Origin: a virus
Lineage: Duplodnaviria; Heunggongvirae; Uroviricota; Caudoviricetes
Length of the DNA: 49,168 bases
Strand: one strand, 5' to 3'
IMG/VR virus record: IMGVR_UViG_2565956718_000004
Part shown: piece after piece, positions 849 to 44,239 of the stretch
Layout of the letters: each line of letters starts with the position of its first letter
Position numbering within the stretch: the first letter of the stretch is position 1
Notes under the pieces: model-generated
Databases searched by the model: none
The model's input: only the letters and a program-made list of their open reading frames with translations
Told to the model about the DNA's origin: nothing
Made by a program: the position numbers and the translations under genes

Positions 849-3800
849 TCAGCTAATCGTGATGCCTGTAGTGGCTTTCTTCATCACCACAACCAGCAAA
901 TCGCTGATACTTGCTGTGGGATACCAGTCATTTACCAGCCATGCTGACACCGAAAACTCCAGCGTCATGTGACCGTGACCGGCAGGCATATCAATAACGC
1001 CACTGTAAATCAGCGTATTATCCAGCGCGGTACGGTTATAAATTTCAGCACCGTTTTTCCGCACTATCAGACGGCATGAGGAGTAAATATCAGTATGCTC
1101 TCTCTCATGCTTAGCGCCACTGAATGCCACAGCCGGAATAACAATTTGCCGGTCAAACGGCTGATCGTCATAAACCCTGACGGTAATGGTCCCTGATGGC
1201 CACCGCTCCGGTGCCCGGGAGTCACGGGGGAAAGCTTTGCCCACTGTTTTAACGAGATCGCCTTCAATCTGGTTCGCGGACAGTTTTCCCAGAACCCGGC
1301 AGTTCTCGTTAATCGTGACGTTGTTGAGCGTCCCGGAGTTCGCATTCACGTTACCGCTGATATCGGCATTTTTCGCCGTCAGCCGCCCGTCCGGTGTCAG
1401 GGAAAATGCCGGAGGATTACCGCCGCTGGTAATGGTGGGGGCCGTCAGGCGCTTCAGGAACACGTCGTTCATGAATATCTGGTTGCCCTGCGCCACAAAC
1501 ATCGGCGTTTCATTCCCGTTTGCCGGGTCAATAAACGCGATACGGTTAGCGGCAACCAGGAACTGGCTCAGTTTGCCTTCCTCCGTATCCTCCATGCTGA
1601 GGCCAAGCCCCGCGACATAATGTTTGCCGTCTTTGGTCTGCTCAATTTTGACGCCCCACATGGCATTCCATTTATCGTTGGCGTCCTTCCACTCTTTCGA
1701 AAACTCCTCCAGTTTGCTGGCGTTATCTTCCGTCAGCTCAAAGTTTTCCAGCAGTTCCTTGCCGAGATGCGTTTTATTGATCAACCCTTTATAAAAATTC
1801 AGATAACCTTCCGCATCATCGCTCGCCCGACCAACGGCCTCCACAAATGCCGATTTACCAACGGTGTTCACGCTGCGGATATAAAAGTAATAATCATAAC
1901 CCGGCTTAATATTGCTACTGGCGGCTATACAGTACAGCGCCGTACCAAGATAACGCGCGCTGGTTTCAACCTGCCTGATATCCGCAATCCGCTTTTCCGA
2001 GAACCAGAACTCAAACTGTACCGTCGGGTCATAAACGGCAAGATGCGGCGTGGCGGTTATCTGAAAATAGCCCGGCGTCAGCTCAATCCGCGACGGTGCT
2101 GCCGGTGCGGCAATCCGGAAGGTGGTGGTGGCAGGTTCACCCTGCTGGCCATAGCTGTTTATCGCCCGCACCGTCAGGGTGTATTCCCCGAGCGGCAGGC
2201 CGCTGAAACGGTGCTCCGTGTCTGCGGTGATGGCGGTGGTCACCAGTCTGGCATCCGTTCCCTTACCACTGGTCAGGCGCAGACTGAAGCGCACGCCCTT
2301 CACCACCCGCGGCGTGTCCCATTTAGCCTGCGCCAGATACTGGCCGTCAGCTGCGCTCACCTCCACCGTCAGGTGCTGTACTGCCGGTGGGATGACGCTG
2401 TTCAGGGAGCCTGACTGCGGCTCAAAGCGGGCACCGTTATCCACGATGGCTTCTTTTTCCGGTACGTGCTGCACCGCCGTGATGGCAAAGGTGCCGTCCG
2501 TGTTTTCCCGGATGGAGACACAGCGGAACAGGCGACGGCGCAGTGACGGCAGGGAGAGTCCCCACACCCCGTATGTCTCCACACCATCAGGCAGGGTACT
2601 GACCTGTATCCGGTCCGGCGCGGGGTGTTCGGTGATGTCCACACTCACTGGCTTACCGCTGCCGTTAATCAGGTTCACCGTGGCGGCACCGGTCTCCGGA
2701 AGTGTCACTTCACGGTCCAGCGTCAGGGTGCGGGTGGCAGCATCAATGGACAGGACACGTCCGCCGGTCAGGGTCCCGGCATAGTCGTTATCACAGATTT
2801 CAATGATGTCACCGGGTGTGTGCCGCAGCCCCTGAGACCCGAGCGTGAAATCCACCGTCTGCGTTTCCAGCAGTTCGGTCTTTATCACCCACAGTCCGGC
2901 ACGGTGGGCCTGACCGCGGCTGGTACAGCCGAACGCGTCCATCTTCAGCAGGTTGCGTCCGTAGCGCAGTATGGCTTCCGGGTCTTCCACCAGTTCCGTG
3001 GAGGTCTGCCAGCCGTTCTGCGGGTCGGTGTAATTCACCTCCACCGCCGTGTGCCGGTCCTTCAGGGCACTGAAGCTGTAGCGGAATCCCACGCCGTTAT
3101 CATCCACCACCACATCGCTGTTGGTGTACGGCCACACCACATCCGACGGGCGGTCCTGAACGAACGTCAGCGTCTGACCGTTCCATACCGGCATACAGCG
3201 CATCGCAGAGCAGAAATCACTGAGAACGTCCCACGCCTTACGCTGTTGTGCCAGGTACGCATTAAAGGTCATCCGCGGCTCGGTCCCCCCGAAACCATCC
3301 GGGACCGTCTGATCGCAGTACTGCCCGATGGCATACAGCGCCCACTTGTCCACATCCGCCGCCTCCAGACGTTTTCCCATGCCGTAGCGCGGGTGAGTCA
3401 GCATGTCCCACAGGCACCAGGCCGGGTTGTTGCTGTATGCCGGTTTCAGACTGCCGTCCCAGATACCACTGTACGTGCGTTTTTCCGGGTCATAGTTTGA
3501 CGGCACCTGGATGATACGACCGCGGATATGGTAGTTCACCGTCATCTGCTGGCCGCCGAACTGCTCCGCATCCACCTGCAGCCCCACAATGGCCGTGTTC
3601 GGGTAGCACTGTTTCACATCGATGATTTCGGTGTATGACGACCACAGCGTCTTATTCTGCAGCTGGTCCGTGGTGCTGTCCGCCGTCTCCCTGACCATCC
3701 GGATGTTAAAGGGCCGGGGAGGCAGATTATCCAGAATCACCGAGGCCAGGAACTGTGAGGTGGTCTTGCCGTTAATGGTGACGTCCTTTTCCGTCACCCA

Positions 3801-4238
3801 GCGGCCATTACGCTGTAACTGAATCAGAATCCGGACAGAGGAAGGATTACGGTCGCCCTTTGACGTGGTCTGCACCAGTGACTGCACCCCGAAGGTAACC
3901 CGCAGGCGGTCAATGTTCGCGGACGTAATGGTGCGCGTCACCGGTTTTGCCTTCGTCACTTCCACGCCCAGTCCGGTTTCAGCTCCGGAGGACTCAAAGC
4001 CTTCCGGTGGTGTCTGCTCCTGCTCCCCGGCGCGCCAGACCGCCGTCACACCGTGTATCACGGGATTGCCGTCCGTGTCCGTCAGTGGGGTTTTGTTCAC
4101 CAGAATACTCTGCAGTCCCTTCACCGGACCTTCTATCGGTCCCTCACCAATCGCATCAATCACACTCATCATCTGCGTGGATTTGAGATTATCCTTCGCC
4201 TCACGAGGCGTGTGTGCCTTACCGCCACCTTTTCCCAT
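849..4238 (-). CDS. J: central tail fibre / host specificity protein J
   Basis: 1129-aa ORF; N-terminus [22 protein letters not shown] and most of the length are lambda-J-like; C-terminal ~150 aa diverge. Confidence 0.95.
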
Positions 4239-4443
4239 ACAGCCTTCCCCTGAATAAATTAACCGCCACTTGCCATTCCGTACAGAAGTCGGATATCCTT
4301 CGCCCGAAAAGCATGAAACACATTTCTGCCATGCTAAAGAGAAACCCCGGTATCAGCAGATACCGGGGTTTTCTTTCATGCCCACCGATAATCCTGTTGG
4401 TTAAAACCGGTAATGGCATAAAAATTCTGAATATCTTCACATT

Positions 4444-4580: not shown

Positions 4581-5261
4581 TTATCCCTGTCGCCCGATAA
4601 CCACGACCGTTCCGCCCCCGCCTTCATCACGGGTGCTGATGTCCTGGGATATACGGCGGGAGCCAACCAGCATTTCCCCGTAAGGCACCGGCATCGGGTT
4701 CCCCTGGGCAATCATGTTATCCAGCGAGGAAAAGTACGTGTTCTGTCTGCCGTTATCCGTTGCGCGGTAATCCGGTGTTTTTGCCTTCGGGGCCAGCATC
4801 TGGGCCACACCGCCCAGAATCATGCTGGCTCCAAGTGAAAACAGCATCGTGGTGGCAGAAAAACCACCGGCTGCCAGGGCTGAACCCCATAACGCCATTG
4901 ATGCCCCGGCAGTGAAGAAAGAGCCCACGATGGCTGCCGCCCCCAGCACAATCTGCAGTCCACCCTTTCCGGCCCCGGCCAGTCGCGGCACAATATGGAT
5001 GACCGTTCCCTCACCCAGCTGTTCGTGAAGACGGGCGTACACCGCCTCCGGTGCCGTGTCATAACCGGCAATACGTATCTGGTACCAGCCTTCGTTCATC
5101 TGACGGCGAAAGCCCGGCACCTGTAACGACAGCGCCCGGATGGCTTCCGCTGCCGTGTTCACATACAGGCTGAGGCGGCGGCCAAATCGTTGTAAATCCC
5201 CGTGAAGGCAGATGCGTGCCAGTGGCGGTGACGCCAGACAGAATGCGTTCGTCGTTGCCAT
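4581..5261 (-). CDS. I: tail assembly protein I
   Basis: 226-aa ORF; N-terminus MATTNAFCLASPPLARICLHGDLQRFGRR and hydrophobic C-terminal half match lambda I. Confidence 0.9.
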   Translation of the reverse strand: MATTNAFCLASPPLARICLHGDLQRFGRRLSLYVNTAAEAIRALSLQVPGFRRQMNEGWYQIRIAGYDTAPEAVYARLHEQLGEGTVIHIVPRLAGAGKGGLQIVLGAAAIVGSFFTAGASMALWGSALAAGGFSATTMLFSLGASMILGGVAQMLAPKAKTPDYRATDNGRQNTYFSSLDNMIAQGNPMPVPYGEMLVGSRRISQDISTRDEGGGGTVVVIGRQG

Positions 5262-5912: not shown

Positions 5913-6611
5913 TTACTGCGAAAGTTTATTAATGGAAAGGAAACCGCCAAAATTGCCGACATTCCTGCGCAGTTCACACCCGCGCATGCACTTGCTGCAT
6001 CTGTCCTTACGGATATCCGTGGTGGGTTTATCGAACTCATCCGCCACAGCCCCGCCCGTGTAACCACACTCATCAGAGCGGTAGGTCCACATACAGGTGT
6101 TCGCCAGCATGATACGACCGGGAAACTGCGCTCCGTCCGTCTCGGTCGGTGTGGCCAGCACAAACGAGGCCGTCATGGCTGTCAGCTGCGACATCTGCTC
6201 CACCACCCAGCGGTCGCTCAGCTCCTGCTCCGGGTCCGCTTCCGGATTGCCCGCCACAAAATTCACCGCATCCAGAAAACGGGCATACACCCGGCGGCGG
6301 ACCACCGTGGCCCCCACCAGACTCTGCAGGTCTTCCGCCATCCCGGTGACAAGGCCGAACAGATTGGACACCGTCAGCGACGGTCTGGCACTGCTGCCTT
6401 TCCCGTTCATTTCAAAGCCGCTGCCATCAATCGGGTACGCCTCATACTTACGCCCCTGCCAGGTGACCGGCTCCCCTTTTTCATTCAGCTCATTACAGAA
6501 AAAATACCGCTCACCGCCCTGTACCGTCAGGTCGATTTCCCAGAGTACCACCCGCGGTGACTGCTCTGATTTAACCGACTCGTTCAGACTTTCTTCGTGA
6601 ATATCCTGCAT
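5913..6611 (-). CDS. L: minor tail protein L
   Basis: 232-aa ORF with a C-terminal Cys cluster typical of lambda L; position between M and K. Confidence 0.9.
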   Translation of the reverse strand: MQDIHEESLNESVKSEQSPRVVLWEIDLTVQGGERYFFCNELNEKGEPVTWQGRKYEAYPIDGSGFEMNGKGSSARPSLTVSNLFGLVTGMAEDLQSLVGATVVRRRVYARFLDAVNFVAGNPEADPEQELSDRWVVEQMSQLTAMTASFVLATPTETDGAQFPGRIMLANTCMWTYRSDECGYTGGAVADEFDKPTTDIRKDRCSKCMRGCELRRNVGNFGGFLSINKLSQ

Positions 6612-20967: not shown

Positions 20968-21192
20968 TCAACACACTGGTTGTAATGCAGCGGATACCAT
21001 GCGGCATTTAGCGGCATTCATCGTACACTCCACGGTTAGCTCTTCATTCGTGGCATTCACCTGAAAGGTCCGGGAGTGTAATTGCGTACATTTACCACTG
21101 AACGAACCTTCAACAAGAACACGACCACGCTGCAAAATACGGAACGGAATTGTTCCCTGAAAAGGTTCTACGGTTACCCGTAATTTCTTCAT
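20968..21192 (-). CDS. hypothetical protein translationally coupled to Rz
   Basis: 74-aa ORF; its ATG overlaps the Rz stop (ATGA) and is preceded by RBS GGAGGA. Confidence 0.5.
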
Positions 21193-21683
21193 GTATCCTC
21201 CGGATAATAAAAAGCCAGCTTAGTGCACTGAGTGCGGATATATTCCTGCGCCCCTTCCAGCTGCTTCTGCATTGTCATCAACCGTTCTCTGAGGATGAAA
21301 TAATCCCGTTCAGCGGTGTCTGCCAGTCGGGGGCCGGTTGCATTATCCACGCCGGAGGTGCCGGTGGCTTCACGCACGGTACCGGAGCAGGTGGCGTTGA
21401 TCCGCAGGCGCTTACGACCAGCGGCAACATCAGCACGCAGAGTTTCATTTTCAGCTCTCGCATCGGCTAATTCCCTCGAGTATCTGGCATCAAGTTCAGC
21501 GACATCACGCTGGCGTATCTGCATATCAGTAATTGTCGCGTTCGCCAGTTTCAGCTCACTGACTTTTTTATCGCGCTGCGCTTTGTAGGTGATGGCGTTA
21601 TCGCGGTAATGATTCAGCCCCAGACTAAGCACACCACAGGCTACCAGCAGGACAATAATCACCACACACAGAACACGGTTCAT
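21189..21683 (-). CDS. Rz: i-spanin Rz
   Basis: Start at [10 protein letters not shown]; N-terminal TM then coiled-coil ([15 protein letters not shown]...) matching lambda Rz. Confidence 0.9.
21278..21463 (-). CDS. Rz1: o-spanin Rz1 lipoprotein (embedded in Rz, +1 frame)
   Basis: 61-aa ORF with lipobox LVVSAC and proline-rich [25 protein letters not shown] matching lambda Rz1. Confidence 0.8.
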
Positions 21684-21901
21684 ATCACCACCAACGGATT
21701 GCCCAGACCAGAACAGCAATGGCCACAATACGAATGGCAAATGCCATTGCCCGAATAAGTTCAGCACTCATCTTTTTAAAGTTCACGATTTCAGCGCAAT
21801 GACCAGTTTTGCCAGCCCATACAGCATCGGAGACACAGCAATACCAACAGCCACCCACTTAATAGCAAAAGCCAGCGCTCTGCTGATGTCATCAGTCACT
21901 G

Positions 21902-22033
21902 TCACCCCAGCAGCCCCGACGAAGACAACATCACCCAGGCGAGGGACAGAAAAAGAGCAACCAGCATTAGTGAAAATGAAATACCGACAATCACACACAG
22001 GACCTTTGCCGGCGTTATGAGTTTGTCTGACAT
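21902..22033 (-). CDS. small hydrophobic membrane peptide (43 aa)
   Basis: ATG at 22033-22031 with RBS AAGGGG 6 nt upstream; MSDKLITPAKVLCVIVGISFSLMLVALFLSLAWVMLSSSGLLG; below the track's 60-aa cutoff. Confidence 0.4.
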   Translation of the reverse strand: MSDKLITPAKVLCVIVGISFSLMLVALFLSLAWVMLSSSGLLG

Positions 22034-22202
22034 AGCTACCCCTTAATTGCCACAATTAACTGGGATACTACCCATAAAAAAGGGATGCTCCAGACCAGCA
22101 AAAATTTCCAGTTTGGTAATTGACTAATCATGAGTCGCAACTCCCTAATCAGTTTGCTAAAATCAATCAAGGCAGCCTCCCATAGCTTACTGCCATAAAA
22201 AC

Positions 22203-22240
22203 AAAACCCCGCTTGCTGCCAACAAACGGGGTTTTTACTT
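22203..22240. terminator. hairpin terminator between endolysin and the small ORF block
   Basis: AAACCCCG / CGGGGTTT stem with 15-nt loop, T-runs on both strands. Confidence 0.45.
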
Positions 22241-22325
22241 TTATTCACTTACATTTTGCCAGTTCGCAGGATTTCGTGTTATCCGTCCGCCTTGGCCAAC
22301 GTCATTTATTAGCAAAATATTCTGC

Positions 22326-22859
22326 TTATCTGTCGATTCCCCAGCACGCCAGCGCGCTCTCCTGGTCACGACGGGATACCTGACCGTAACAGTTATTTGA
22401 GCGAATACGGCAGTCCCTGCCACCGTCCTTAATCCACCAGCGAATCGCCTCACACGCTCCCCTGCGATCACCTGCATTAATTCGTTTATAAAACGTCGAC
22501 GGAAAACACTTACCGGGGCCAATGTTGTACGGACAGAATGACGCGATCCCCGCTTTCTGGGGTTCACTCAATGGCACTCTGATGTTTTTCTCCACCCATG
22601 CCAGCGCCTTATCACGCTCAATGGCGTTAACCCGGTCGCATTTTTCCTTCGACAACTTCATGCCCGGAACGACAGGTTTGCCATCCACCAGGATGGCACC
22701 GCGGCAGATGGTCCAGATACCCGCGCCATCACGGTATGCCGTGGTGTGGTTACCTTCCTTTTCATCCAGAAACTGGTCGAGAATGTCAGGCGCAGGCGCA
22801 CCAGCGGCAATCAGCGCCAGAACGGCAGCCGACAGGCCGTATCTGATTTTTGCGTTCAT
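22326..22859 (-). CDS. R: SAR endolysin (lysozyme, phage-21 R-like)
   Basis: 177-aa ORF; N-terminal signal-anchor-release segment MNAKIRYGLSAAVLALIAAGA then lysozyme-like catalytic region. Confidence 0.9.
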   Translation of the reverse strand: MNAKIRYGLSAAVLALIAAGAPAPDILDQFLDEKEGNHTTAYRDGAGIWTICRGAILVDGKPVVPGMKLSKEKCDRVNAIERDKALAWVEKNIRVPLSEPQKAGIASFCPYNIGPGKCFPSTFYKRINAGDRRGACEAIRWWIKDGGRDCRIRSNNCYGQVSRRDQESALACWGIDR

Positions 22860-22964
22860 GGATATTTATCAGGATTTATCGGTTTCTGAGCCCTGGATAT
22901 GTTTATCAGTTCCAGCCTGTTGCCTCAGGCTGCTAACAGGTCAATACAATCATGAGGATTATTT

Positions 22965-23237
22965 ATGGACAATAACACCATTTCTCTACAGGAGTTGCTC
23001 GACAGCATTTCCAGGCTTCGGGAAGACGTGAATACCCTTACCGTCGCCTTCTCATATCTGGCATTCTCAATTCCAAGGGAACAGATGCAATCAACGCTGG
23101 CATCAATCCAGTTTGAATCATGCAATCCCAAATGGTCTCAGGAACAACAAGACTCTTTCAGGCGGCTTGCTGTATTACTGGATGAAAAATATGCTGGTAA
23201 AATTACCATTTCGGCGGACTCTTCAGAGAACCAGTAA
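22965..23237 (+). CDS. hypothetical protein (plus-strand ORF inside the lysis cassette)
   Basis: 90-aa ORF with RBS GAGGA 6 nt upstream; 3' end overlaps the convergent 114-aa gene by 35 nt. Confidence 0.4.
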   Translation: MDNNTISLQELLDSISRLREDVNTLTVAFSYLAFSIPREQMQSTLASIQFESCNPKWSQEQQDSFRRLAVLLDEKYAGKITISADSSENQ

Positions 23238-23547
23238 TTATTCCCGGTAGTTTTCCTCTGTAGGTTATCAACACATCCTGCGCCTCTAAAATTACGGGGC
23301 GCTTTTCCGGCGACTGCTCATCCCCTTCACATAACCCGGCAGCAACATCCAGGAAGACCTGTCTGATGCTCCTTCTGGCTGCTGCCTCATAAAACTCCAG
23401 CGCGGCACCTTCAACACGGTCCAGCGAGATGTCCAGGTCAAAAATTTCACCGTCAAAGCGTTTTTTGTCCCGTAACGCTAAAGTTACCGTAACTTTATTC
23501 TCAAAATTGCGGATCCCTTTCACAATCAGTTCATAGTTTTGAGTCAT
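23203..23547 (-). CDS. hypothetical protein inserted between holin and endolysin
   Basis: 114-aa ORF starting 5 nt after the holin stop with RBS GGAGAG. Confidence 0.55.
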   Translation of the reverse strand: MTQNYELIVKGIRNFENKVTVTLALRDKKRFDGEIFDLDISLDRVEGAALEFYEAAARRSIRQVFLDVAAGLCEGDEQSPEKRPVILEAQDVLITYRGKLPGIITGSLKSPPKW

Positions 23548-23551
23548 TGAA

Positions 23552-23767
23552 TTACTCTCCCCGTGCCGCCTTACGACGGTCCTCTCTGATTTTGAAATAC
23601 AGGTTAGTCAGATATGTCAGCAGCCCAAACAGCAGACTCCCCAGCACGCCTATTGCCGCCCACTGAGACGGGGAAACCCTGTCCAGCAACTGCAGGAACC
23701 AGTAGCCCGTTCCCACCGCTGACGTGGTGTATGACACACCTGTTGTGATTTTTTCCATCTGGTACAT
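23552..23767 (-). CDS. S: pinholin S (phage 21 S21-like)
   Basis: 71-aa product from [10 protein letters not shown] (two Met starts 3 codons apart, as in S21); C-terminus ...[22 protein letters not shown] matches S21 from memory. Confidence 0.85.
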
Positions 23768-23917
23768 ACCCCGTCTCCCGTTATCCGGAAGCTGACAACA
23801 ATAAAAAAAGCCACCAGTTAAGTACTGATGGCTCTGATAACTCATGCAGGCATCTCAGACGACCCACTGACACTACCGGTGAGTTTAACGATACCTTCCA
23901 TTTGACTGGCTCACTTT

Positions 23918-25789
23918 TTATGATGATGCCGGTGCATTTATCTCCAGCACCAGGCTGCCGATATCGACGCCATACGCTGCATTTTTGGTAATATCCGTCA
24001 GCGTCAGCGCATTCAGCCCCAGTGTCAGACTGTCTTTTATGACCTGGAATGCCGGGCCAGCCACTCCATTCAGTTTCGGAGTAACCGTGGCACTGCCGGC
24101 GGTGAACACCAGCTCCAGCGTCTGCCAGTCGTTACTGTAATTCCCGAACTCGCCCAACTTTGTGTTTCCGGCTTTCTTGTGATGCATCAGATTCAGTTTG
24201 CCGTCTGTGGTCTGGGTGAAGAACGACATCAGGAACGGGTTACCAGTCCCGGTCATCGCCACGACGTCAGGTAACGCTACATCGGTATACAGATAAATTC
24301 CCAGACCGAACTGGTTGTTGGTCAGTGCGCCTGACAGTCGAAACTTACAGCTCAGTCTGCCACCCCGTGTCAGCAGGGAGACTGCGTCATCCACCGGATG
24401 CATCAGGGACCAGGTTTTATTGCTCTGCTTGGTAACCTTAAACACACCATCTTCCAGCGCAACACTGCCGCCGGTGATGGTCCAGCCCTGCGCAGCAGCC
24501 TCTCCGGCTGTCGGCAGCAGGGAGACTGTACGAACGGATGTGTCACCATCAGACGGCCCCGATGGCGTGTCGCCGCCGGGCGAGGGTTTAATCTCCGGTG
24601 CGGTACCGCTGATGAAGGCGCTGGTTCGACCAACTGCGTTCAGAATAGCGGTTGCCAGGCGATCCGAAATAATGCCCCTGCGCGCCCATGAACTGAAATG
24701 TGTCGGACGATTTGACGATACCCAATTACCATTACTACGGGATTGCGCGCCGTAATAACCTGCATCAGCAATATCCGGGTCTTCTGCCGGTAAGTTGGTG
24801 GGCGTGTTGTTGCCGTTACCGTCGGTCATGAACGGCACAAAGAAAACGTTGTCGCTCTCCCTGTTTTTGTACGCGCCGTAGACGGAGTCATACTGTGTGC
24901 CGTATGTGTTTTTCCAGTAATACGTCGTGTCGCCACAAATCCACGGTACAACTGCAGCACTGCCGCCATGGCACTGCGCGTTAAATCCGGAAAGGTCAGT
25001 ACGGAACTGCTTCAGCATGGCCGTGAACAGGTCCGGTTGCTGTGCGTAGGTGGCAGCGCTCATGTCAAATTCGCCCTGCATCCAGCACACCGCCAGCAAC
25101 ACATTTTTCGGGTTCTTCTGTAATGCCGCTTTGGTGCGTGCGATCAGGTCCTGATATAACGGTTTACCCACACCCCAGCGTGCCGAATCCTGGCTGGCCC
25201 CCGTGTCCGCACTGAATGTCCCCTCCGCGCCCTGGGTGAATGCCGAACCACCACGACAGCATGGTACCAGCAGGATCCCCGCGTTATTCGGGATATACGG
25301 AAGCAGTTTTTTGGCAATATGTAAGCCCTGGCCGACACAGCCGTACTGCCCTTTGCTCAGGTCTGCCTTCGGATGATTCAGTGCGCTCATATCCTGAACA
25401 TCATGCAGGCAGTGGTCTGCCGGAATGATGTCGTTAAATGCGCATGCTTTACCACCGGGAGTCACTGTGTTGCGACGGGCCAGTTGCTTAATGCGTGGGT
25501 GGGGCGCATCGTAAGAATCCGGAAGCGGAAGCCCTTCACCGTAAGCCATGGCATTGGATTGCCCGGCCAGTACGATGACGTAGTACCACTCCGGCTCAGT
25601 TGCACCACTGACGACCACATCACCTTCTGCTGCAATCGCCTGCATCAGGGTATAAGGGGTTATGGCCACCGGACTACCAAACGGCTGCCAGCCCTCTTTC
25701 AGTTTATGTGTCAGCTTTTCCGCAAGATCTGACGGCGACGCCGCCCTGACAACATCATAGTGTTTAAATGCCATGGTTCTTTCCACCAT
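23918..25789 (-). CDS. prophage sialate O-acetylesterase (NanS-p-like; DUF1737 N-domain, SGNH esterase core, C-terminal lectin-like domain)
   Basis: 623-aa ORF; N-terminus MAFKHYDVVRAASPSDLAEKL...; GQSN esterase motif; upstream of the holin as in Stx-type prophages. Confidence 0.75.
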   Translation of the reverse strand: MVERTMAFKHYDVVRAASPSDLAEKLTHKLKEGWQPFGSPVAITPYTLMQAIAAEGDVVVSGATEPEWYYVIVLAGQSNAMAYGEGLPLPDSYDAPHPRIKQLARRNTVTPGGKACAFNDIIPADHCLHDVQDMSALNHPKADLSKGQYGCVGQGLHIAKKLLPYIPNNAGILLVPCCRGGSAFTQGAEGTFSADTGASQDSARWGVGKPLYQDLIARTKAALQKNPKNVLLAVCWMQGEFDMSAATYAQQPDLFTAMLKQFRTDLSGFNAQCHGGSAAVVPWICGDTTYYWKNTYGTQYDSVYGAYKNRESDNVFFVPFMTDGNGNNTPTNLPAEDPDIADAGYYGAQSRSNGNWVSSNRPTHFSSWARRGIISDRLATAILNAVGRTSAFISGTAPEIKPSPGGDTPSGPSDGDTSVRTVSLLPTAGEAAAQGWTITGGSVALEDGVFKVTKQSNKTWSLMHPVDDAVSLLTRGGRLSCKFRLSGALTNNQFGLGIYLYTDVALPDVVAMTGTGNPFLMSFFTQTTDGKLNLMHHKKAGNTKLGEFGNYSNDWQTLELVFTAGSATVTPKLNGVAGPAFQVIKDSLTLGLNALTLTDITKNAAYGVDIGSLVLEINAPASS

Positions 25790-26034
25790 CTGAAAAATGA
25801 TTCTTTAAAATACCTGACATGTAATACAGAAAAAACACAAAACCATACCTTAAATAAAAACCTCATCATCAAGCAGATATGCATGGATAAACTACAAGAC
25901 GAGATATAAACCACCCTGCATTTAAATAAACAATAAACAACATCAGAAAAATAATTCTGCTCTATGGTTTACAATCAAAAATATCATTTATACTTTTCAG
26001 AACATCACCAGCAAGGCATAAACAAGGAAACTAA

Positions 26035-26370
26035 ATGAAGTGGATTGTGATTGATACAGTTATCCAGCCATCATGCGGAATATCTTTTTCAGTCATATGG
26101 AGTAAAATAAAATTAATAATCTGGTATCAATCGGATGCTTTCTTACCTCCTGAAAGTATATTTACACTGACTCACACAGGCATCATGCTCAATAACAAAG
26201 TGCTACCTGTAACCATTTACAACGTAGTACCATTCAATAAAACATTATGGAATTTAATCAAAAACAGCCAGGAATGCCCTACAAATACAGATAACGTATT
26301 GAATGAATGCTTTAATAACCGTTGCACTCTGCAAATATGTCCTTATGGGCTAAAACAACAAAGTCCATAA
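26035..26370 (+). CDS. hypothetical Cys-containing protein in an AT-rich block (moron candidate)
   Basis: 111-aa ORF with RBS AAGGA 7 nt upstream; low GC relative to flanks; opposite strand to the late operon. Confidence 0.4.
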
Positions 26371-26395
26371 GCAGTTTACTCACATCTGACAAAAT

Positions 26396-26615
26396 CAATA
26401 TAAACAGCCCCTCCGGAGAGGGGCTGGAGAGTGGCGCTATGTGCCATTGCATGGTGCCGGGTGCCTCCCGGTGAATTCAGTACCAGCACCTGAATCCGCG
26501 ATTATCCCATATACCTACTCGCTGATTACCCCTCCGCACAGGGGGATTCACCATGCGAAATTTTTTAACAAACTTCCCGCCGGCCAGACAATAATCGCCA
26601 GCCTGAATTATGAGC
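26396..26615. repeat. structured repeat unit, copy 1 (candidate ncRNA element)
   Basis: Starts with hairpin AGCCCCTC-CGGA-GAGGGGCT; shares conserved blocks with copy 2 while paired stems flank unrelated loops. Confidence 0.6.
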
Positions 26616-26868
26616 AACGTGGCATTTTACGGGAAAACTGTTTTCTGCAGTAAAAAGGCCCGCCGGAGCGAGCCTGGAAGGATAGCGGTCATGTGATGCC
26701 GGTTTCCCGGTAACTCAGCATCGGTATCTGAGTCAACGTTTTCTCTACTGGGTCATTTCCGATACGTTCCGCCTTCCGGCAGACTTTCATCACGTCAGAA
26801 AATATAGCACCCTGAGTAACAGGACAGTACTCAGAATTCAGGAAACTGTGACACATCCTGCACAGAAA

Positions 26869-27083
26869 AGCCCCTCCGGAGAGGGGCTGAAGTATAGCCT
26901 AATTTCTGTCTGTCGCATGGTGCCAGGGGCCTCCCGGTAAATTCAGCCTGTCTACTGAATTTGCATGTTCTCTGGATCATACACTTTGCCAGATGCCCCG
27001 CCGCTGAGGGGGATTCACCATGCGATGTAATTTTTAACAAATTCTCCGGCAGCCAGACAATCATCAAGCTGTGGAATTGTGAG
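26869..27083. repeat. structured repeat unit, copy 2 (candidate ncRNA element)
   Basis: Same block structure as copy 1; on the minus strand the 5' hairpin is followed by TTTTCTGTG, i.e. terminator-like. Confidence 0.6.
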
Positions 27084-27254
27084 GTATTTAAAAATTTCAA
27101 CGGGTAACTGATACCCTGCTAATCGCCTGATGCTTTCTTTTTCAGCAACGGGAAAGCAACAACCACACACCCGCCACCAAAACACCATCAGACAGCACCG
27201 ACATTATCCGGCTGCTGAAGTCCACCATCACCACCAGAAACAACAGGAGTGCAA

Positions 27255-27303
27255 CCACAGCTGCTTAGAAGGCAATTGCTCTGTCCGGCTGAGCTAACAA
27301 CGC
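27255..27303 (-). pseudogene. truncated tRNA-Arg(UCU)-like gene (5' half only)
   Basis: Acceptor 5' strand, D-arm GCTC-AGCCGGACA-GAGC and anticodon arm with loop CTTCTAA are present; no T-arm or 3' acceptor strand follows. Confidence 0.4.
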
Positions 27304-27316
27304 ATGATGCAGATAA

Positions 27317-27393
27317 TGGACCGCCATCGGGGACTTGAACCCCGCGCAGCCAGCTTCGAAGGCTGGCGCTCTATCCCGATGAGCTAATGGCGG
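27317..27393 (-). tRNA. tRNA-Arg (anticodon UCG)
   Basis: 77-nt cloverleaf ending CCA: acceptor CCGCCAT/ATGGCGG, D-arm GCTC..GAGC, anticodon stem CCAGC/GCTGG with loop CTTCGAA, T-arm CGGGG-TTCAAGT-CCCCG. Confidence 0.8.
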
Positions 27394-27400
27394 TATGTGA

Positions 27401-27476
27401 TGGTGGCCCTTGCTGGATTTGAACCAGCGACCTGGCGATTATGAGTCGCTCGCTCTCACCACTGAGCTAAAGGGCC
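27401..27476 (-). tRNA. tRNA-Ile2 (anticodon CAU, lysidine type; ileX/ileZ-like)
   Basis: 76-nt sequence GGCCCTTTAGCTCAGTGGTGAGAGCGAGCGACTCATAATCGCCAGGTCGCTGGTTCAAATCCAGCAAGGGCCACCA, close to E. coli ileX. Confidence 0.85.
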
Positions 27477-27525
27477 GGAAGCAGAATAATAATGGTGCGT
27501 AATTAATTCTGCAATCTCATCCGTT

Positions 27526-28575
27526 TCAAACGATTAAATCCTGAACTTCCCTGACTGTCTGCTCAAAACGTCCGGTCTCCTGTTCAACGCCAATCGCACG
27601 ACGCCCGAGCGCCAGTGCAGCTTTTACCGTTGAACCTGAGCCCATAAAAAAATCTGCAACCAGGTCACCCGGACGACTGCTTGCGCTGATTATCTGCTGC
27701 AGCATTTCTGCCGGTTTTTCGCACGGATGTTTCCCGGGATAGAACTGCACCGGTTTATGTGTCCACACATCCGTGTACGGCACCTGCGCCGTCACACCAA
27801 AATACCGCCGCAGATGCTTATATTCACTCTGCAGCTCCACATACTGCCGGTTCAGTGACGTATACGTATCCACCAGCTGGTGGTGGGGCTTTTCCAGTTC
27901 ACCGCGCTGATGTTTCTCTTCTGCCACCCGGGCAAACAGCGACTGTAATTTCAGATAATCGCTTTCGTTCGGTAGCTGCCACTGACTGGCACTGAACCAG
28001 TGCGACACCATGTTTTTCTTTCCTGTGGCATCTGCAATCTGTTTTGCCGTTATCCCCAGGGCCGCGCGCGCATCACGAAAGTAAGAAATCAGCGGGGCCA
28101 TCACATGCTGTTTCAGTGCACTGCCCTTCGCCGCATACCCGGCATCTTTCGGACGATACGGCCCCTGATAATGTTCCGCGAACAGAATGCGCTCTGTGGC
28201 GGGGAAATACGCCCGCAGGCTTTCCTTGTTGCATCCGTTCCAGCGTCCGGACGGCTTCGCCCAGATAATATGGTTCAGCACACAGAAGCGTTCACGCATC
28301 ATGATTTCGATATCAGATGCCAGGCGATGACCACAGAACAGGTAAAGACTTCCGACAGGTTTCAGCACCCGCCAGAACTGCGCCAGACACTGGTCCAGCC
28401 ACTTCAGGTAATCATCGTCGCCCTTCCACTGGTTATCCCAGCCCTCAGGCTTCACTTTAAAGTACGGCGGGTCCGTGACTATCAGGTCAACAGAATTTTC
28501 GGGTAACGACCGGATAAATTCCAGGCAGTCGGCGTTGATTAACTCACAACTGGATATTTTTACAGTATTAAGCAT
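27526..28575 (-). CDS. DNA methyltransferase (amino-MTase; VTDPPY motif)
   Basis: 349-aa ORF with motif IV DPPY near the N-terminus and a C-terminal SAM-binding FxGxG-like segment (FFMGSGST). Confidence 0.8.
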   Translation of the reverse strand: MLNTVKISSCELINADCLEFIRSLPENSVDLIVTDPPYFKVKPEGWDNQWKGDDDYLKWLDQCLAQFWRVLKPVGSLYLFCGHRLASDIEIMMRERFCVLNHIIWAKPSGRWNGCNKESLRAYFPATERILFAEHYQGPYRPKDAGYAAKGSALKQHVMAPLISYFRDARAALGITAKQIADATGKKNMVSHWFSASQWQLPNESDYLKLQSLFARVAEEKHQRGELEKPHHQLVDTYTSLNRQYVELQSEYKHLRRYFGVTAQVPYTDVWTHKPVQFYPGKHPCEKPAEMLQQIISASSRPGDLVADFFMGSGSTVKAALALGRRAIGVEQETGRFEQTVREVQDLIV

Positions 28576-28715
28576 GGATCATTAAGCCTGTCTCTGATAG
28601 GCTCATTCTGCTTTTGCGCAAAGCAGTGGGCCTGAGGTTTGCTTGTGAACCCAACGCATGAGCAGATGGCTGGTGGGTGCCCCTAACACCCACCAGCCGC
28701 CCATTTACCACAAAT

Positions 28716-28739
28716 AAAAAAGCCTTCACTGCGGAAGGC
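28716..28739 (-). terminator. intrinsic terminator after the small HTH gene
   Basis: Minus-strand hairpin GCCTTC-CGCAGT-GAAGGC followed by TTTTTTATTTG; overlaps the gene's stop codon. Confidence 0.55.
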
Positions 28740-28923
28740 GTCTGTAACAACCGAACTGATAGTCTGCCAGACCCGCCATAACCAGCTGGGTCAGTATTAA
28801 CTGGCAGCGTTCGCGTGAAAGGTAAGTATTCTGCGCTATCTCCCCGACTGTCGCCGGTTCGGTAACGCTTAATTCATTAAACACCACTCTGGCGGTTTCT
28901 GTCATATCCTGCTGTTTTAGCAT
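28726..28923 (-). CDS. small winged-helix-like DNA-binding protein
   Basis: 65-aa ORF from MLKQQDMTE with RBS AAGGGA; lies between two terminators. Confidence 0.45.
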   Translation of the reverse strand: MLKQQDMTETARVVFNELSVTEPATVGEIAQNTYLSRERCQLILTQLVMAGLADYQFGCYRRLPQ

Positions 28924-29044
28924 GTCTTTTTCCCTTTTCCGGTTAACGTGACACACCAATAACTCTTGTCGAAAAAGCCAGCAAGCTGAAAGACAGGTAT
29001 TCACCGCCACCAGCGCGTTTACTGTACTGACGCGATTTCAGTCA

Positions 29045-29068
29045 TAAAAAACCCGCCAGGCGGCGGGG
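29045..29068 (-). terminator. tR'-like intrinsic terminator downstream of Q
   Basis: Minus-strand hairpin CCCGCC-GCCT-GGCGGG followed by T6. Confidence 0.6.
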
Positions 29069-29116
29069 TGTAAAAAATCTTCTAACGTCAGGCATAAAAC
29101 GCCCATCGTTAGAGCA

Positions 29117-29144
29117 AATTTACCACAGATTCGGGAAAAATCAA
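29117..29144 (-). promoter_or_regulatory. candidate late promoter (pR'-like)
   Basis: Minus-strand TTGATT, 16-bp spacer, TAAATT immediately after the Q stop, ~50 nt upstream of the tR'-like hairpin. Confidence 0.35.
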
Positions 29145-29149
29145 CAACA

Positions 29150-29971
29150 CTATCGCGTTACCCTCTTTAACTGCCGCTCCGCCCATGCCTCTTCAATGTC
29201 AAACCGAACCACCAACGTATCGTAAAAGCGTTTCACTGATTTTTTCCACGTATCAAGCGTGATAGCACTCGTCACTTTGCATATGGCATTAAATGCCTCC
29301 GTTGATGGTAGTCTTTCACAGCCACGACCACCACAACGCTGGCAGTCTCTGATAACAGGCATACCACGTTTTACCGACTCTTCACGATGAATGGCGACAC
29401 CACGCCCACGGCAATCCTTACAGGCGGTGGAAATCTCCCCCTTCCCTTTACATTCAGGACAAGACACTTTCACCACCTCCCGATTTTTTTTCCATTCTTC
29501 CCAGTAAGACGGATACACACCTTTCGTACACTTTGCCCATACCGGCGGCTTACCATCCGGATACTGGACCTTGTTTGTAAAAACTACGCTTTCAATAAAT
29601 TTTTCCCCATAGCAACAAGGGCACTGCTTTTTACTCGCTGCGCTGCGGGCATAATCCTCAAAAGCGTACGAAGCCATAATGCGCATCACTACCGGTTTTA
29701 TTTCTGCCGGGAGTTTTCTTAACGCCGCCACGCGATCACACCGACTGAGTGCATATTCTGTCAGCAATTCTGTTGCCCGCTCTCTGTCATTCATACTAAT
29801 GCCCATTTTCCCAAGGAACGCAGAAAACCCCATCTCAGCCCGATTCTGTGTCATGCCCTGCGCGGCCATCACATCAGTGATACTCAGCGCATCTTTCGAC
29901 GTTGAGGCCGATGCATCAGTCAGGCCGGGGGATTTTGGGGAGTAGTATTTCGGTAAATCTTCCAGTTTCAT
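29150..29971 (-). CDS. antitermination protein Q-like, with DnaJ-type CxxCxGxG zinc-finger repeats
   Basis: 273-aa ORF after rusA; CPECKGKGE, CKDCRGRGV, CQRCGGRGC repeats; followed by the promoter/terminator unit. Confidence 0.55.
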   Translation of the reverse strand: MKLEDLPKYYSPKSPGLTDASASTSKDALSITDVMAAQGMTQNRAEMGFSAFLGKMGISMNDRERATELLTEYALSRCDRVAALRKLPAEIKPVVMRIMASYAFEDYARSAASKKQCPCCYGEKFIESVVFTNKVQYPDGKPPVWAKCTKGVYPSYWEEWKKNREVVKVSCPECKGKGEISTACKDCRGRGVAIHREESVKRGMPVIRDCQRCGGRGCERLPSTEAFNAICKVTSAITLDTWKKSVKRFYDTLVVRFDIEEAWAERQLKRVTR

Positions 29972-30348
29972 TTTTTGACCTGCTCTTCATGCATTATGGG
30001 GTAAATCTTCACCCCCAGACGTCCACCAGATACTGGCTGACCACGAACGATATTGATTTCATCAAACTGCTCATCGTCCATTAGCAACCCCGCATGCGTC
30101 AGCGCATCCAGCGGCGCTTTCAGAATATTGTCCAGGTCACGGCGGCGCTTATCCGGTGGTTCTGCAATAATTTTTATTGCCAACCTTCCGGACAGGCTTA
30201 ATTTCAGCCGCTGCTGGCGAACAATAAGCGCCACTGCCCGGCGATAACGCTCCCCGGCTTTTGATACAAAATATGTGCTGCCACGACGACGCCAGTAAGT
30301 GTTCACCGTTGGCGGGTAAGGCAAAACAAATTCTATGCGTTCAGTCAT
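29968..30348 (-). CDS. rusA: crossover junction endodeoxyribonuclease RusA
   Basis: 126-aa ORF; MTERIEFVLPYPPTVNTYW... with RRRDLDN motif typical of RusA. Confidence 0.9.
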   Translation of the reverse strand: MTERIEFVLPYPPTVNTYWRRRGSTYFVSKAGERYRRAVALIVRQQRLKLSLSGRLAIKIIAEPPDKRRRDLDNILKAPLDALTHAGLLMDDEQFDEINIVRGQPVSGGRLGVKIYPIMHEEQVKK

Positions 30349-31404
30349 TTATGCTTTCCACTTCAGAACACCCGAATTTCTCGCGTGCATTAAAAAACGA
30401 ATCAGCAACAACAGCTGGCTGCCGTGTTTTTCTTCATAATCTTTTACCCCGGCGTGTAGTTCGCTATGGCATTTACGGCACAGCGGAATAACAAACAAAT
30501 CATCAGCCTTTGTTCCCATCCCTCCCAGTCCATGACCAATGATGTGATGCGGATCATCTGCCTGATTGCCACACGTCATGCATTTCTGCGTTTTTACCCA
30601 GCGCGTGTATACAGGCATCTCTTCCCGTTGTGATTTCTGGCGCTGGAGATACTGAGCCGGTGACTCGGGATCAACGGCAATGCTGACCACCGTCTTTTCC
30701 TGTGGCGGGTTTTGCTGGTGGGCGTGAGGCAGCGGCGCAAGATTTTTTGTGCGCTGCTTCAGTATGCTGGTGGCGGTCTGCTCTCCCGGTACGATGTCGC
30801 TTTCACGGTACATTGAGCGGATTTTTTCCGCACGCAACCCCAGCGAACGACGTAATACCGCTTCCGGTAGCGCGTCCGCCACCTGATTGCGGACCGCCCA
30901 CCAGGATAATTCAGCCAGCGATAATTCCCGTTCCTGCGAGCCATTCATTGCATGGCGTATGACGTCAATCATCCATGCAGACAGGTTTTGGTGAGCAAGT
31001 TGCCCGAGTGATTCGGATGTCTGGTCGCGCAGCTGGTTGTCGCAGTGCCAGCACAACACCATTGCGCCGGTACCATAACGGTGAATGACGGTTTCACTGT
31101 GGTGATAATCACCGTGTGGCCACTGGCAGGATTTAACATGGCGCAGTAACCAGTCAGACAATGCGCCAGCGCCACCAGCAGCACGAATCACTCGTTCGTC
31201 GCTGAAAAATGGCAGTAATGATTTATCCTCCGCCAGCGGCTGGCGAACGGCAGGAACGACCCCGGACGGCAGATTACGCATGCTTTTCGGTTCCGGCTCC
31301 ACCAGTACCCGGGTATTGTGGAATACCGGCATGGATTCACGGCCCGGCTTAACGATCACCAGCCCGAGTTCCGGTACCAGAACAGGTCGAAGTAATACCC
31401 GCAC
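30349..31404 (-). CDS. DUF968-family phage protein (YdfU-like) with C-terminal HNH-like zinc-binding motif
   Basis: 351-aa ORF; C-terminal CMTCGN...HHIIGHGLGGMGTKADD...CRKCH; position upstream of rusA/Q as in Qin-like prophages. Confidence 0.65.
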   Translation of the reverse strand: MRVLLRPVLVPELGLVIVKPGRESMPVFHNTRVLVEPEPKSMRNLPSGVVPAVRQPLAEDKSLLPFFSDERVIRAAGGAGALSDWLLRHVKSCQWPHGDYHHSETVIHRYGTGAMVLCWHCDNQLRDQTSESLGQLAHQNLSAWMIDVIRHAMNGSQERELSLAELSWWAVRNQVADALPEAVLRRSLGLRAEKIRSMYRESDIVPGEQTATSILKQRTKNLAPLPHAHQQNPPQEKTVVSIAVDPESPAQYLQRQKSQREEMPVYTRWVKTQKCMTCGNQADDPHHIIGHGLGGMGTKADDLFVIPLCRKCHSELHAGVKDYEEKHGSQLLLLIRFLMHARNSGVLKWKA

Positions 31405-31851: not shown

Positions 31852-32007
31852 TTACTCCTCAGGTTCGTAAGCTGTGAAGACAGCGACCTCCGTCTGGCCG
31901 GTTCGGATTCGTACCTCGCAGAGGTCTTTCCTCGTTACCAGTGCCGTCACTATGACGGTTAAACAGATGACGATCAGGGCGATTAACATCGCCTTTTGCT
32001 GCTTCAT
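31852..32007 (-). CDS. hok: Hok/Gef family type I toxin
   Basis: 51-aa MKQQKAMLIALIVICLTVIVTALVTRKDLCEVRIRTGQTEVAVFTAYEPEE, the classic Hok sequence pattern. Confidence 0.85.
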   Translation of the reverse strand: MKQQKAMLIALIVICLTVIVTALVTRKDLCEVRIRTGQTEVAVFTAYEPEE

Positions 32008-32160
32008 AGCCTGCTTCTCCTTGACCTTTCGGTCCGTAAGAGGCTAATCTCTATGTGTCGCATAGATATGGCCTCAGATTAATGTTAAGCGTCTTGCAGG
32101 ACGCGTAATGTTAACTGGGGCTTTTCTCTATCTGCCTTTTGGTGTTCATGCCTGAGACAG
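32008..32160. other. hok mRNA leader / expected mok-sok regulatory region
   Basis: Structured region immediately upstream of hok where hok/sok loci carry the overlapping mok frame and antisense Sok RNA; exact sok ends not resolved. Confidence 0.4.
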
Positions 32161-32265
32161 ATAGCCTCAAGCACCCGCAGTCATTCTACTTAACTAAGAT
32201 TTCCCCGCAAACCGTTTTTGTCCGGCACAGTAAATATCCAACTAAACCAATGGCGTTCGCTGTAT

Positions 32266-43366: not shown

Positions 43367-44239
43367 TTCACCCTCCTGAGGGTTGGTGATTAAGGAGTTC
43401 TCCACGGGTGAGGTGGAGTGCGTGCGCCGGACACGGGTGAGCATCCGGCACTGACAGTTTACTGAAAGGATATTTCCCTGAAAAGTCAGACCATAACGCG
43501 AAAGCGCTCGGTGAGGTAGCTGGTTCATAGATAGCCTGTCGTTAAATTTTCGTCGACCGTGCGCTTCCGGTTGTGGCAATCCGCGAAATGGCGCGGCGGT
43601 AAGTATGGCGGGGTTATTCCTTCCCCCGTTGAGGACACCGGGTTGTCAGGTTGACCATACGCTTAAGTGACAACTCCGCTGCAACGCCCTCTGTTATCAA
43701 TTTTCTGGTGACTTTTGGCGGTATCAGTTCTACTCCGTGACTGCTCTGCCGCCCTTTTTAAAGTGAATTTTGTGATGCGGTGAATGCGGCTCAGCGCACG
43801 CGGAACAGTTAAAACAAGCGGTCTTTTACGGGCGTAACGGGAATGCTCTGTATCCGACGTTAATTGTTAACTGGTTAACGTCACCTGGAGGCACCAGGCA
43901 CCGCATCAACAAAGTTCACTTCGGTGATGAAAGGTAGAGAAAATGTTGAATGTAGCTATTGAAAACCAGAACGGGTGGAATTATAGTGCACCTGCACCTC
44001 ATAAAACGGGTGCCGGGCGTGGAAACCCGAAATCATTCACGGCGCATAACCGCGCTCAGGCGGTTTTTTTATGCGTTAAGCACAGCCACATTCGCATTAT
44101 GGTGGGGCGTGCAGGGCAGCCGCAAGGCTGGCCGGGTTCCGTGATGACCGGTATTTCCACCCCTGTACGTCTCACCACCCTTATGGTCGTGGAAAACCTC
44201 GGTGGTGAGTTAATCAAATTCATCGCGGAGGCTGCCATC

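Follow-up and report, generated by a model that had tools for sequence, protein, structure and literature searches.

A prophage locus with the layout of the Shiga toxin (Stx) region of Stx-converting phages was analyzed in IMG/VR record IMGVR_UViG_2565956718_000004 (49,168 nt, all of it referred to as the window). Nearly all of a lambdoid prophage, of a kind common in E. coli, lies in the window, with its late region on the minus strand. The locus is very likely an accessory-gene belt assembled from known parts: an argO-tciB deletion scar, small RNA (sRNA) genes of the STnc100 family, and an independent iraL gene. It would correspond to the "moron" belt of a lambdoid prophage. This belt runs from Q/pR′ to the lysis genes and is the site of stxAB in Stx phages. 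An initial annotation, made from the sequence alone, had placed a breakpoint inside a third tRNA gene and proposed that toxin genes were lost there and replaced by uncharacterized cargo. The breakpoint is genuine and non-homologous, and lies at 27262. The proposed toxin loss and the uncharacterized cargo are not borne out by the analyses described here. Feature coordinates are reported in Table 1.

In the late direction, the locus consists of argO nt 1–42, a tciB remnant, and an STnc100 array on the minus strand, and a 111-aa open reading frame (ORF) on the plus strand, followed by nanS-p. The argO fragment, read from 27303 to 27262, is identical to argO of phi296 and mEp460 and differs from 933W argO by one base. 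What is left of the gene is the 5′ strand of the acceptor stem, the D-arm, the anticodon loop, and, on the 3′ side of the anticodon stem, 3 of 5 nt; nothing remains of the variable loop, the T-arm, or the 3′ acceptor strand. With only nt 1–42 of 77, it does not form the complete cloverleaf of a functional tRNA-Arg(UCU). Two tRNAs only were called, and no third, by ARAGORN in the window and by Infernal with the Rfam tRNA model in 21000–31000 (E ≤ 1). The truncation without a T-arm described in the initial annotation was confirmed. Processing and charging require a T-arm and an acceptor stem, which the fragment lacks, and it is not expected to function. Folding of the argO remnant together with the junction gave nothing notable (z +0.83).

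Homology to five argO-bearing loci (933W, phi296, CFT073, Stx2_EH2201, and 23CRST044) stops exactly at 27262. Homology to tciB of phage JLK-2012 and of 23CRST044 begins at 27261, which is tciB nt 22. No microhomology was found at the junction in the alignment. Compared with the 23CRST044 locus (L011), window positions 27262 and 27261 correspond to 4352 and 3697, and 654 bp (3698–4351) are missing. This missing sequence covers the final 35 nt of argO, a spacer, the whole of tciA, and tciB nt 1–21 (seven codons).

The tciB remnant matches PF13064 (DUF3927) with 42.1 bits (cut-off 25). It is not an intact tciB: its first 21 nt with the native start and the upstream tciA are absent, and a 1-nt deletion in the alignment produces a −1 frameshift ahead of the C-terminus. 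By tblastn, TciB residues 19–39 and 37–54 fall in two different frames of the window. The argO and tciB remnants both appear to be without function. Literature searches on tciA/tciB returned only unrelated Trypanosoma papers.

An undeleted layout is present in Escherichia coli 23CRST044 and 83972, in the order Q-hypothetical-methylase-ileZ-argN-argO-tciA (TerB family)-tciB-STnc100-(degenerate copy)-STnc100-AsxR-nanS-p. These two loci share the methylase-tRNA block with the window, and they share Q accession WP_000762880.1 with the window-identical locus of NCCP15648, in which RefSeq names Q "antitermination protein." The left flank of the window, on the tRNA side, is 94.6% identical to 23CRST044 over 3.1 kb. 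Segment 27261–26916 is 82–84% identical to tciB and the following STnc100 of JLK-2012/23CRST044. The window differs from these tciA-tciB prophages in lacking tciA and in its 5′-cut and frameshifted tciB, and 23CRST044 and 83972 have AsxR in place of iraL.

Of 5426 complete E. coli genomes, 325 contain the exact 80-nt junction probe over its full length. Because the same junction is present in so many complete genomes, it is far beyond chance. The junction 28-mer was found in 30 IMG/VR contigs, and every contig that extends far enough has iraL linked to it. Q, the methylase, and nanS-p vary around the junction block in these contigs, and the STnc100 array is collapsed to one copy, with loss of the middle copy, in 5 of the 30. 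The whole block also occurs in four deposited phage genomes, without the methylase or nanS-p. The junction is shared across mosaic backbones together with iraL and STnc100, and the scar is therefore old, fixed, and hitch-hiking. From transcription start site to stop codon, iraL is covered at ≥80% in 1440 of the 5426 genomes, with best-place identities of ≥90%. A variant of the CFT073/ST131 type with an intact argO is present in about 680 further genomes. Phage vB_EcoS-640R1 (L001, around 6530–6610) has the block at 97% identity to the window. Only a tRNA-Met(CAT) was called there by ARAGORN and Rfam; the Arg(TCG) tRNA was not called, no methylase is present, and of nanS-p a DUF1737 fragment is left.

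A single non-homologous event would have joined argO nt 42 to tciB nt 22. The simplest form of such an event, and the direction that we infer, is a 654-bp deletion in an ancestor with the layout ileZ-argN-argO-tciA-tciB-STnc100. This deletion would have taken the 3′ half of argO, the spacer, the TerB-family tciA, and the first seven tciB codons. The −1 frameshift would have been acquired later by the tciB remnant, and neither remnant would be expected to be functional.

Several observations weigh against this reading. The closest undeleted relative, 23CRST044, is 82.4% identical to the window on the tciB/STnc100 side versus 94.6% on the tRNA side. No undeleted relative with window-type tciB variants was found when a chimeric tciA-plus-window query was searched against the 5426 E. 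coli genomes and when metagenome contigs and IMG/VR were scanned for exact patterns. The best full-length matches to the chimeric query were of the 23CRST044/83972 type, with about 82% identity on the right side. Because of this difference between the two sides and the lack of a closer undeleted relative, internal deletion and illegitimate recombination are indistinguishable on these data. RefSeq also annotates a 28-aa DUF3927 ORF (27142–27228) inside the tciB remnant. A mEp460-like layout was rejected as the deletion parent, as it has an intact argO but another 117-aa ORF and another tciB breakpoint.

The junction could instead have arisen by illegitimate recombination between two co-resident lambdoid phages. 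One would have given Q, the methylase, and the tRNAs up to argO nt 42, and the other the sequence from tciB nt 22 onward with the STnc100 copies and iraL. The fall in identity to the 23CRST044 type exactly at the junction and the failure to find an undeleted parent with window-type right-hand sequence favor such an exchange, as does the mosaic nature of late regions, seen in the variable neighbors of the block and in another tciB 5′ breakpoint in CFT073 and mEp460. However, the non-coding sRNA region could simply have diverged faster or undergone homologous exchange earlier, which would also give the identity drop, and both halves are colinear in 23CRST044, so a single deletion is more economical. 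An origin by recombination between phages is possible but rather unlikely. The genes annotated as "DUF3927 family protein" in CFT073 (L008, 3053–3184) and mEp460 (L006, 4204–4335) are chimeric tciB remnants with a different 5′ breakpoint. They sit behind an intact argO and about 500 bp of other sequence, which contains the 117-aa ORF in mEp460. Because their breakpoint differs from that of the window, the tciB 5′ spot has been rearranged more than once.

The two structured repeats reported in the initial annotation belong to the STnc100 family. Copies A and B score well above the Rfam RF02076 gathering score of 47 bits, cover model positions 1–206, and are about 75% identical to each other, differing most in the central variable region. 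The middle copy scores below this threshold. A terminator scan placed a GC hairpin with a T-rich tail at the end of copy A (26888–26869) and of copy B (26426–26405). The middle copy has its own terminator-like hairpin (26675–26656), and folding gave it only modest stability (z −1.7). The late-operon strand carries two intact STnc100 genes and one degenerate gene, each with an intrinsic terminator and related to EcOnc27 and PasD. No convincing sigma-70 promoter for the STnc100 copies was found on the minus strand. A middle STnc100-like copy also lies between the good copies in 23CRST044 and PhiR5_2.

STnc100/EcOnc27/PasD sRNAs have been described as Hfq-bound and prophage-borne (PMC12711010; bioRxiv 10.64898/2026.05.13.724894). 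EcOnc27/sRNA103 of O157 was reported as a discrete Hfq-bound RNA and overlaps the STnc100 copy 3′ of stx2B (PMC12711010), and the STnc100 family is related to the sRNA PasD of enteropathogenic E. coli (bioRxiv 10.64898/2026.05.13.724894). The window copies resemble these sRNAs in their full-length match, their terminal hairpins, and their site 3′ of the cargo slot as in Stx phages. They differ in forming a tandem array. In this strain they would be expressed as sRNAs.

The plus-strand 111-aa ORF, which the initial annotation had correctly described as AT-rich with its own ribosome-binding site, is IraL, which has already been characterized experimentally; the assignment follows from near-identity of sequence. 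Its product is 110/111 identical to CFT073 IraL (gene NC_004431 1343465–1343800), which is encoded in a prophage adjoining potB. This places it in the IraL branch of the IraM/IraL/RssC family of anti-adaptors. At family level, residues 1–110 match NCBIfam NF007393, "anti-adapter protein IraM," at 162.4 bits (cut-off 121), and the ORF matches the crystallized IraM (PDB 8twd, E 2.5e-32). Over residues 1–78, its identity to K-12 IraM is only about 67%. Genes for iraL are ≥95% identical among themselves and distinct from iraM (PMC4045071). In CFT073, IraL is an anti-adaptor of RssB; it binds the RssB N-terminal domain and stabilizes the stress sigma factor RpoS, shielding it from degradation (Hryckowian et al. 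2014, PMC4045071). The window protein would be expected to do the same.

The iraL transcript start is also conserved. The first 30 of the 32 nt of the published 5′-RACE (rapid amplification of cDNA ends) sequence match 30/30 at 26002–26031, which places the mapped start 33 nt before the ATG. A TATACT −10 element, read from the sequence, is located 7 nt upstream of this start, and the upstream region is 96.9% identical to its CFT073 counterpart. The ORF has an AAGGA ribosome-binding site and a GC content of 34.5%, versus 52.4% in the whole window; the cassette as a whole has 30–35% GC and lies on the strand opposite to the late operon. An AT-rich, opposite-strand cassette is the usual mark of an accessory gene expressed in the lysogen. 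With these features and its own promoter, iraL would be expressed in the lysogen. No clear plus-strand terminator was found for the iraL mRNA.

The window and CFT073 share the IraL protein, the AT-rich upstream region, the mapped 5′ end, the orientation, and the slot between STnc100 and nanS-p/DUF1737, 3′ of the Q-tRNA cluster. STnc100 copy B falls within the 96.9%-identical block common to both. In CFT073, argO is intact, an IS200 follows Q, tciB is broken at another 5′ point, STnc100 is present once, and nanS-p is truncated, whereas the window combines the argO-tciB scar with two STnc100 copies and a further degenerate copy, the methylase, and a full nanS-p.

The likeness to Stx phages was confirmed. 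The methylase/tRNA segment (27262–29066) is 94.6% identical to that of the Stx2a phage Stx2_EH2201. The window follows the Stx2 phage order of Q, (methylase), ileZ, argN, argO, cargo, STnc100, opposite-strand slot, nanS-p, holin, and endolysin, except that argO is truncated. Unlike Stx2 phages, it has no stxA and stxB between the tRNA cluster and nanS-p, only a tciB remnant follows argO, and its Q is of a different type (273 aa). In 933W, the interval from argO to STnc100 is exactly where stxAB lies, and blastn of the window against 933W skips the stx interval. No StxA, StxB, or TciA remnants were found in the window by tblastn (best E 0.065 for Stx2A/Stx2B). Because argO is joined to the interior of tciB, an undeleted tciAB layout exists, and no Stx trace was found, the cassette lost at the breakpoint was of the tciAB type and not a toxin operon.

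Nor did the 111-aa ORF arrive at the breakpoint as a substitute for stx, as had been proposed; it occupies a separate slot on the opposite strand. The Stx2c phages 1717 and 2851 and the Stx2a phage Stx2_EH2201 have an intact argO, stx2AB, STnc100, and an IraM-family gene in the iraL slot, a likeness that is shared by Stx2c-type and some Stx2a phages. The encoded protein has 107 aa and is 80/111 (72%) identical to IraL, and its gene, on the opposite strand, immediately precedes nanS-p. It is located at 4615–4938 in both 1717 (L009) and Stx2_EH2201 (L010), between STnc100 and yjhS/nanS-p and adjoining stx2B. No paper discussing this gene of Stx2 phages was found in the open-access literature. 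These stx-positive phages carry the same arrangement unrearranged, which defeats the cargo claim of the initial annotation and leaves its breakpoint claim standing.

Other genomes combine the parts differently. CFT073 has iraL with three intact tRNAs, and PhiR5_2 has both STnc100 copies and nanS-p without iraL. Because these genomes and the Stx2 phages combine the parts otherwise, iraL is independent of the argO scar and is not a replacement for stx. STnc100 keeps its position: it lies 3′ of stx2B in 933W and Stx2_EH2201, follows tciB in JLK-2012 and 23CRST044, and directly follows argO in the stx-negative phi296. AsxR occupies the opposite-strand slot of 933W and 23CRST044, and 933W differs from the window in having no anti-adaptor gene there. 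The anti-sRNA AsxR directly follows the STnc100 3′ end in the iraL slot at 2741–2793 (+) of L011 and 4985–5037 (−) of L003. The slots are independent: the first, after argO, holds stxAB, tciAB, another ORF, or nothing; the second holds STnc100; and the third, on the opposite strand, holds AsxR, IraM/IraL, or nothing.

A broader proposal is that the truncated argO and tciB, the two to three STnc100 copies, and iraL form a co-selected unit. The iraL mRNA would run antisense into the convergent STnc100 copy B, and RpoS stabilization and Hfq-sRNA output would be reciprocally tuned, in lysogeny versus Q-driven induction. In its widest version, IraM-family anti-adaptors would be a regular but overlooked partner of Stx2c-type toxin loci. 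We consider this proposal improbable.

It is very improbable that the scar itself was selected, either as an argO-tciB transcript (a tRNA-half-like RNA or a leader of STnc100 copy A) or as a hydrophobic TciB membrane peptide of 28–38 aa. Base-for-base conservation of the junction on differing backbones would agree with selection, but close linkage to iraL/STnc100 and recent spread account for it. The RefSeq-annotated 28-aa ORF persists, with an ATG start and a GGTGGTG motif upstream, but the native start is gone and the C-terminus was lost by frameshift. The segment also has no special fold, and the scan found no promoter-like site beside it.

Least credible is that an Stx phage lost stxAB through the argO breakpoint and gained the 111-aa ORF and the repeats as uncharacterized cargo: the Stx-like gene order, the Stx2a-like methylase-tRNA segment, and the position of stxAB in 933W speak for it, but argO is joined to the interior of tciB and not to sequence downstream of stx, no stxA or stxB remnant was found, the same Q and methylase stand ahead of the undeleted tciAB layout, STnc100 and an IraM-family gene occur alongside stx2AB and an intact argO in Stx2c/Stx2a phages, iraL occurs alongside an intact argO in CFT073, and the ORF is the characterized IraL.

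The remainder of the late region was annotated using ARAGORN, Infernal, and Pfam, which upheld the gene order of the initial annotation. In the late direction it reads Q, a small ORF, the methyltransferase, tRNA(CAT), tRNA-Arg(TCG), the region described above, the nanS-p-type esterase, the P21-type holin, a DUF1327/YdfR gene, and the lysozyme. The methyltransferase has about 95% nucleotide identity with the methylase of Stx2_EH2201. RefSeq places the nanS-p start at 25774, and homology to 933W picks up again at this start codon. The lysozyme is SAR-like (signal-arrest-release), judged from its N-terminal sequence MNAKIRYGLSAAVLALIAAGA. A hairpin 3′ of Q is a candidate tR′ by its position. Positions 25600–29300 contain 13 terminator-like hairpins versus 3.8 ± 1.9 in shuffles. 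Most are on the late strand, at the STnc100 copy ends and after Q. This enrichment is consistent with a leader that only Q-modified polymerase reads through.

Other RNA elements were detected in the window. A sub-threshold Rfam match to the plastid ycf2 5′ untranslated region (36 vs 65.7 bits) at 27403–27476 (+), antisense to tRNA(CAT), is evidently spurious and tRNA-like. At 32005–32176 (−), an Rfam sok antitoxin match (106.7 bits) points to the presence, upstream of the Q region, of a hok/sok-type toxin-antitoxin locus, and a 51-aa ORF (31852–32007) resembles a Hok-type peptide. The early region contains a prophage sRNA cluster at 43703–44182 (+), composed of DicF (43703–43754), isrK (43994–44070), and C4 antisense RNA (44095–44182).

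Table 1. Features of the late region of the window.
Feature	Coordinates	Strand	Basis
Phage lysozyme, N-terminal Ala/Gly-rich hydrophobic segment	22326..22859	−	PF00959, E 1.3e-23
Class II (P21-type) holin	23552..23767	−	PF04971, E 2.3e-32; RefSeq coordinates
nanS-p-type SASA carbohydrate esterase (SASA/DUF1737)	23918..25774	−	PF03629, PF08410, PF20350
Divergent AT-rich intergenic region with iraL promoter	25775..26001	+	About 30% GC; TATACT −10 at 25989–25994
iraL transcription unit (transcription start 26002, ATG 26035, stop 26370; 111 aa)	26002..26370	+	IraL identity, 5′-RACE match
STnc100-family sRNA gene, copy B	26396..26584	−	RF02076, 132.5 bits
Degenerate STnc100-like middle copy	26649..26824	−	RF02076, 30 bits, E 0.0018, below gathering score
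STnc100-family sRNA gene, copy A	26860..27053	−	RF02076, 138 bits
tciB/DUF3927 remnant, 5′-truncated, −1 frameshift	27122..27261	−	PF13064
Non-homologous junction, argO nt 42 to tciB nt 22	27261..27262	.	Alignment and exact coordinates
argO remnant, tRNA-Arg(UCU) nt 1–42 of 77	27262..27303	−	42/42 match to phi296 and mEp460 argO
tRNA-Arg (TCG), argN-type	27317..27393	−	ARAGORN; Rfam tRNA 58.4 bits
tRNA, anticodon CAT (ileZ-type tRNA-Ile2)	27401..27476	−	ARAGORN (Met/Ile2-CAT); Rfam tRNA 72.5 bits; RefSeq tRNA-Ile
N6/N4 DNA methyltransferase	27526..28575	−	PF01555, E 6.2e-44
Intrinsic-terminator-like hairpin 3′ of Q, candidate tR′	29052..29067	−	Consensus scan only: CCCGCCGCCTGGCGGG then TTTTTT
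Late antiterminator Q, 273 aa	29150..29971	−	PF03589 Antiterm, E 7.8e-51

All functional parts of the locus were known before, and the tRNA/tciB junction is probably a small, inert scar. A layout like that of Stx phages can mislead, and little else turns on the finding. The stretch from the tRNAs to nanS-p forms an accessory-gene hotspot with several slots, whose occupants vary independently, and the absence of a toxin beside a broken tRNA therefore does not mean that a toxin was replaced. It is mildly useful that the IraL slot is also the slot of the IraM-like gene in Stx2c phages, which may bear on RpoS control in Shiga toxin-producing E. coli.

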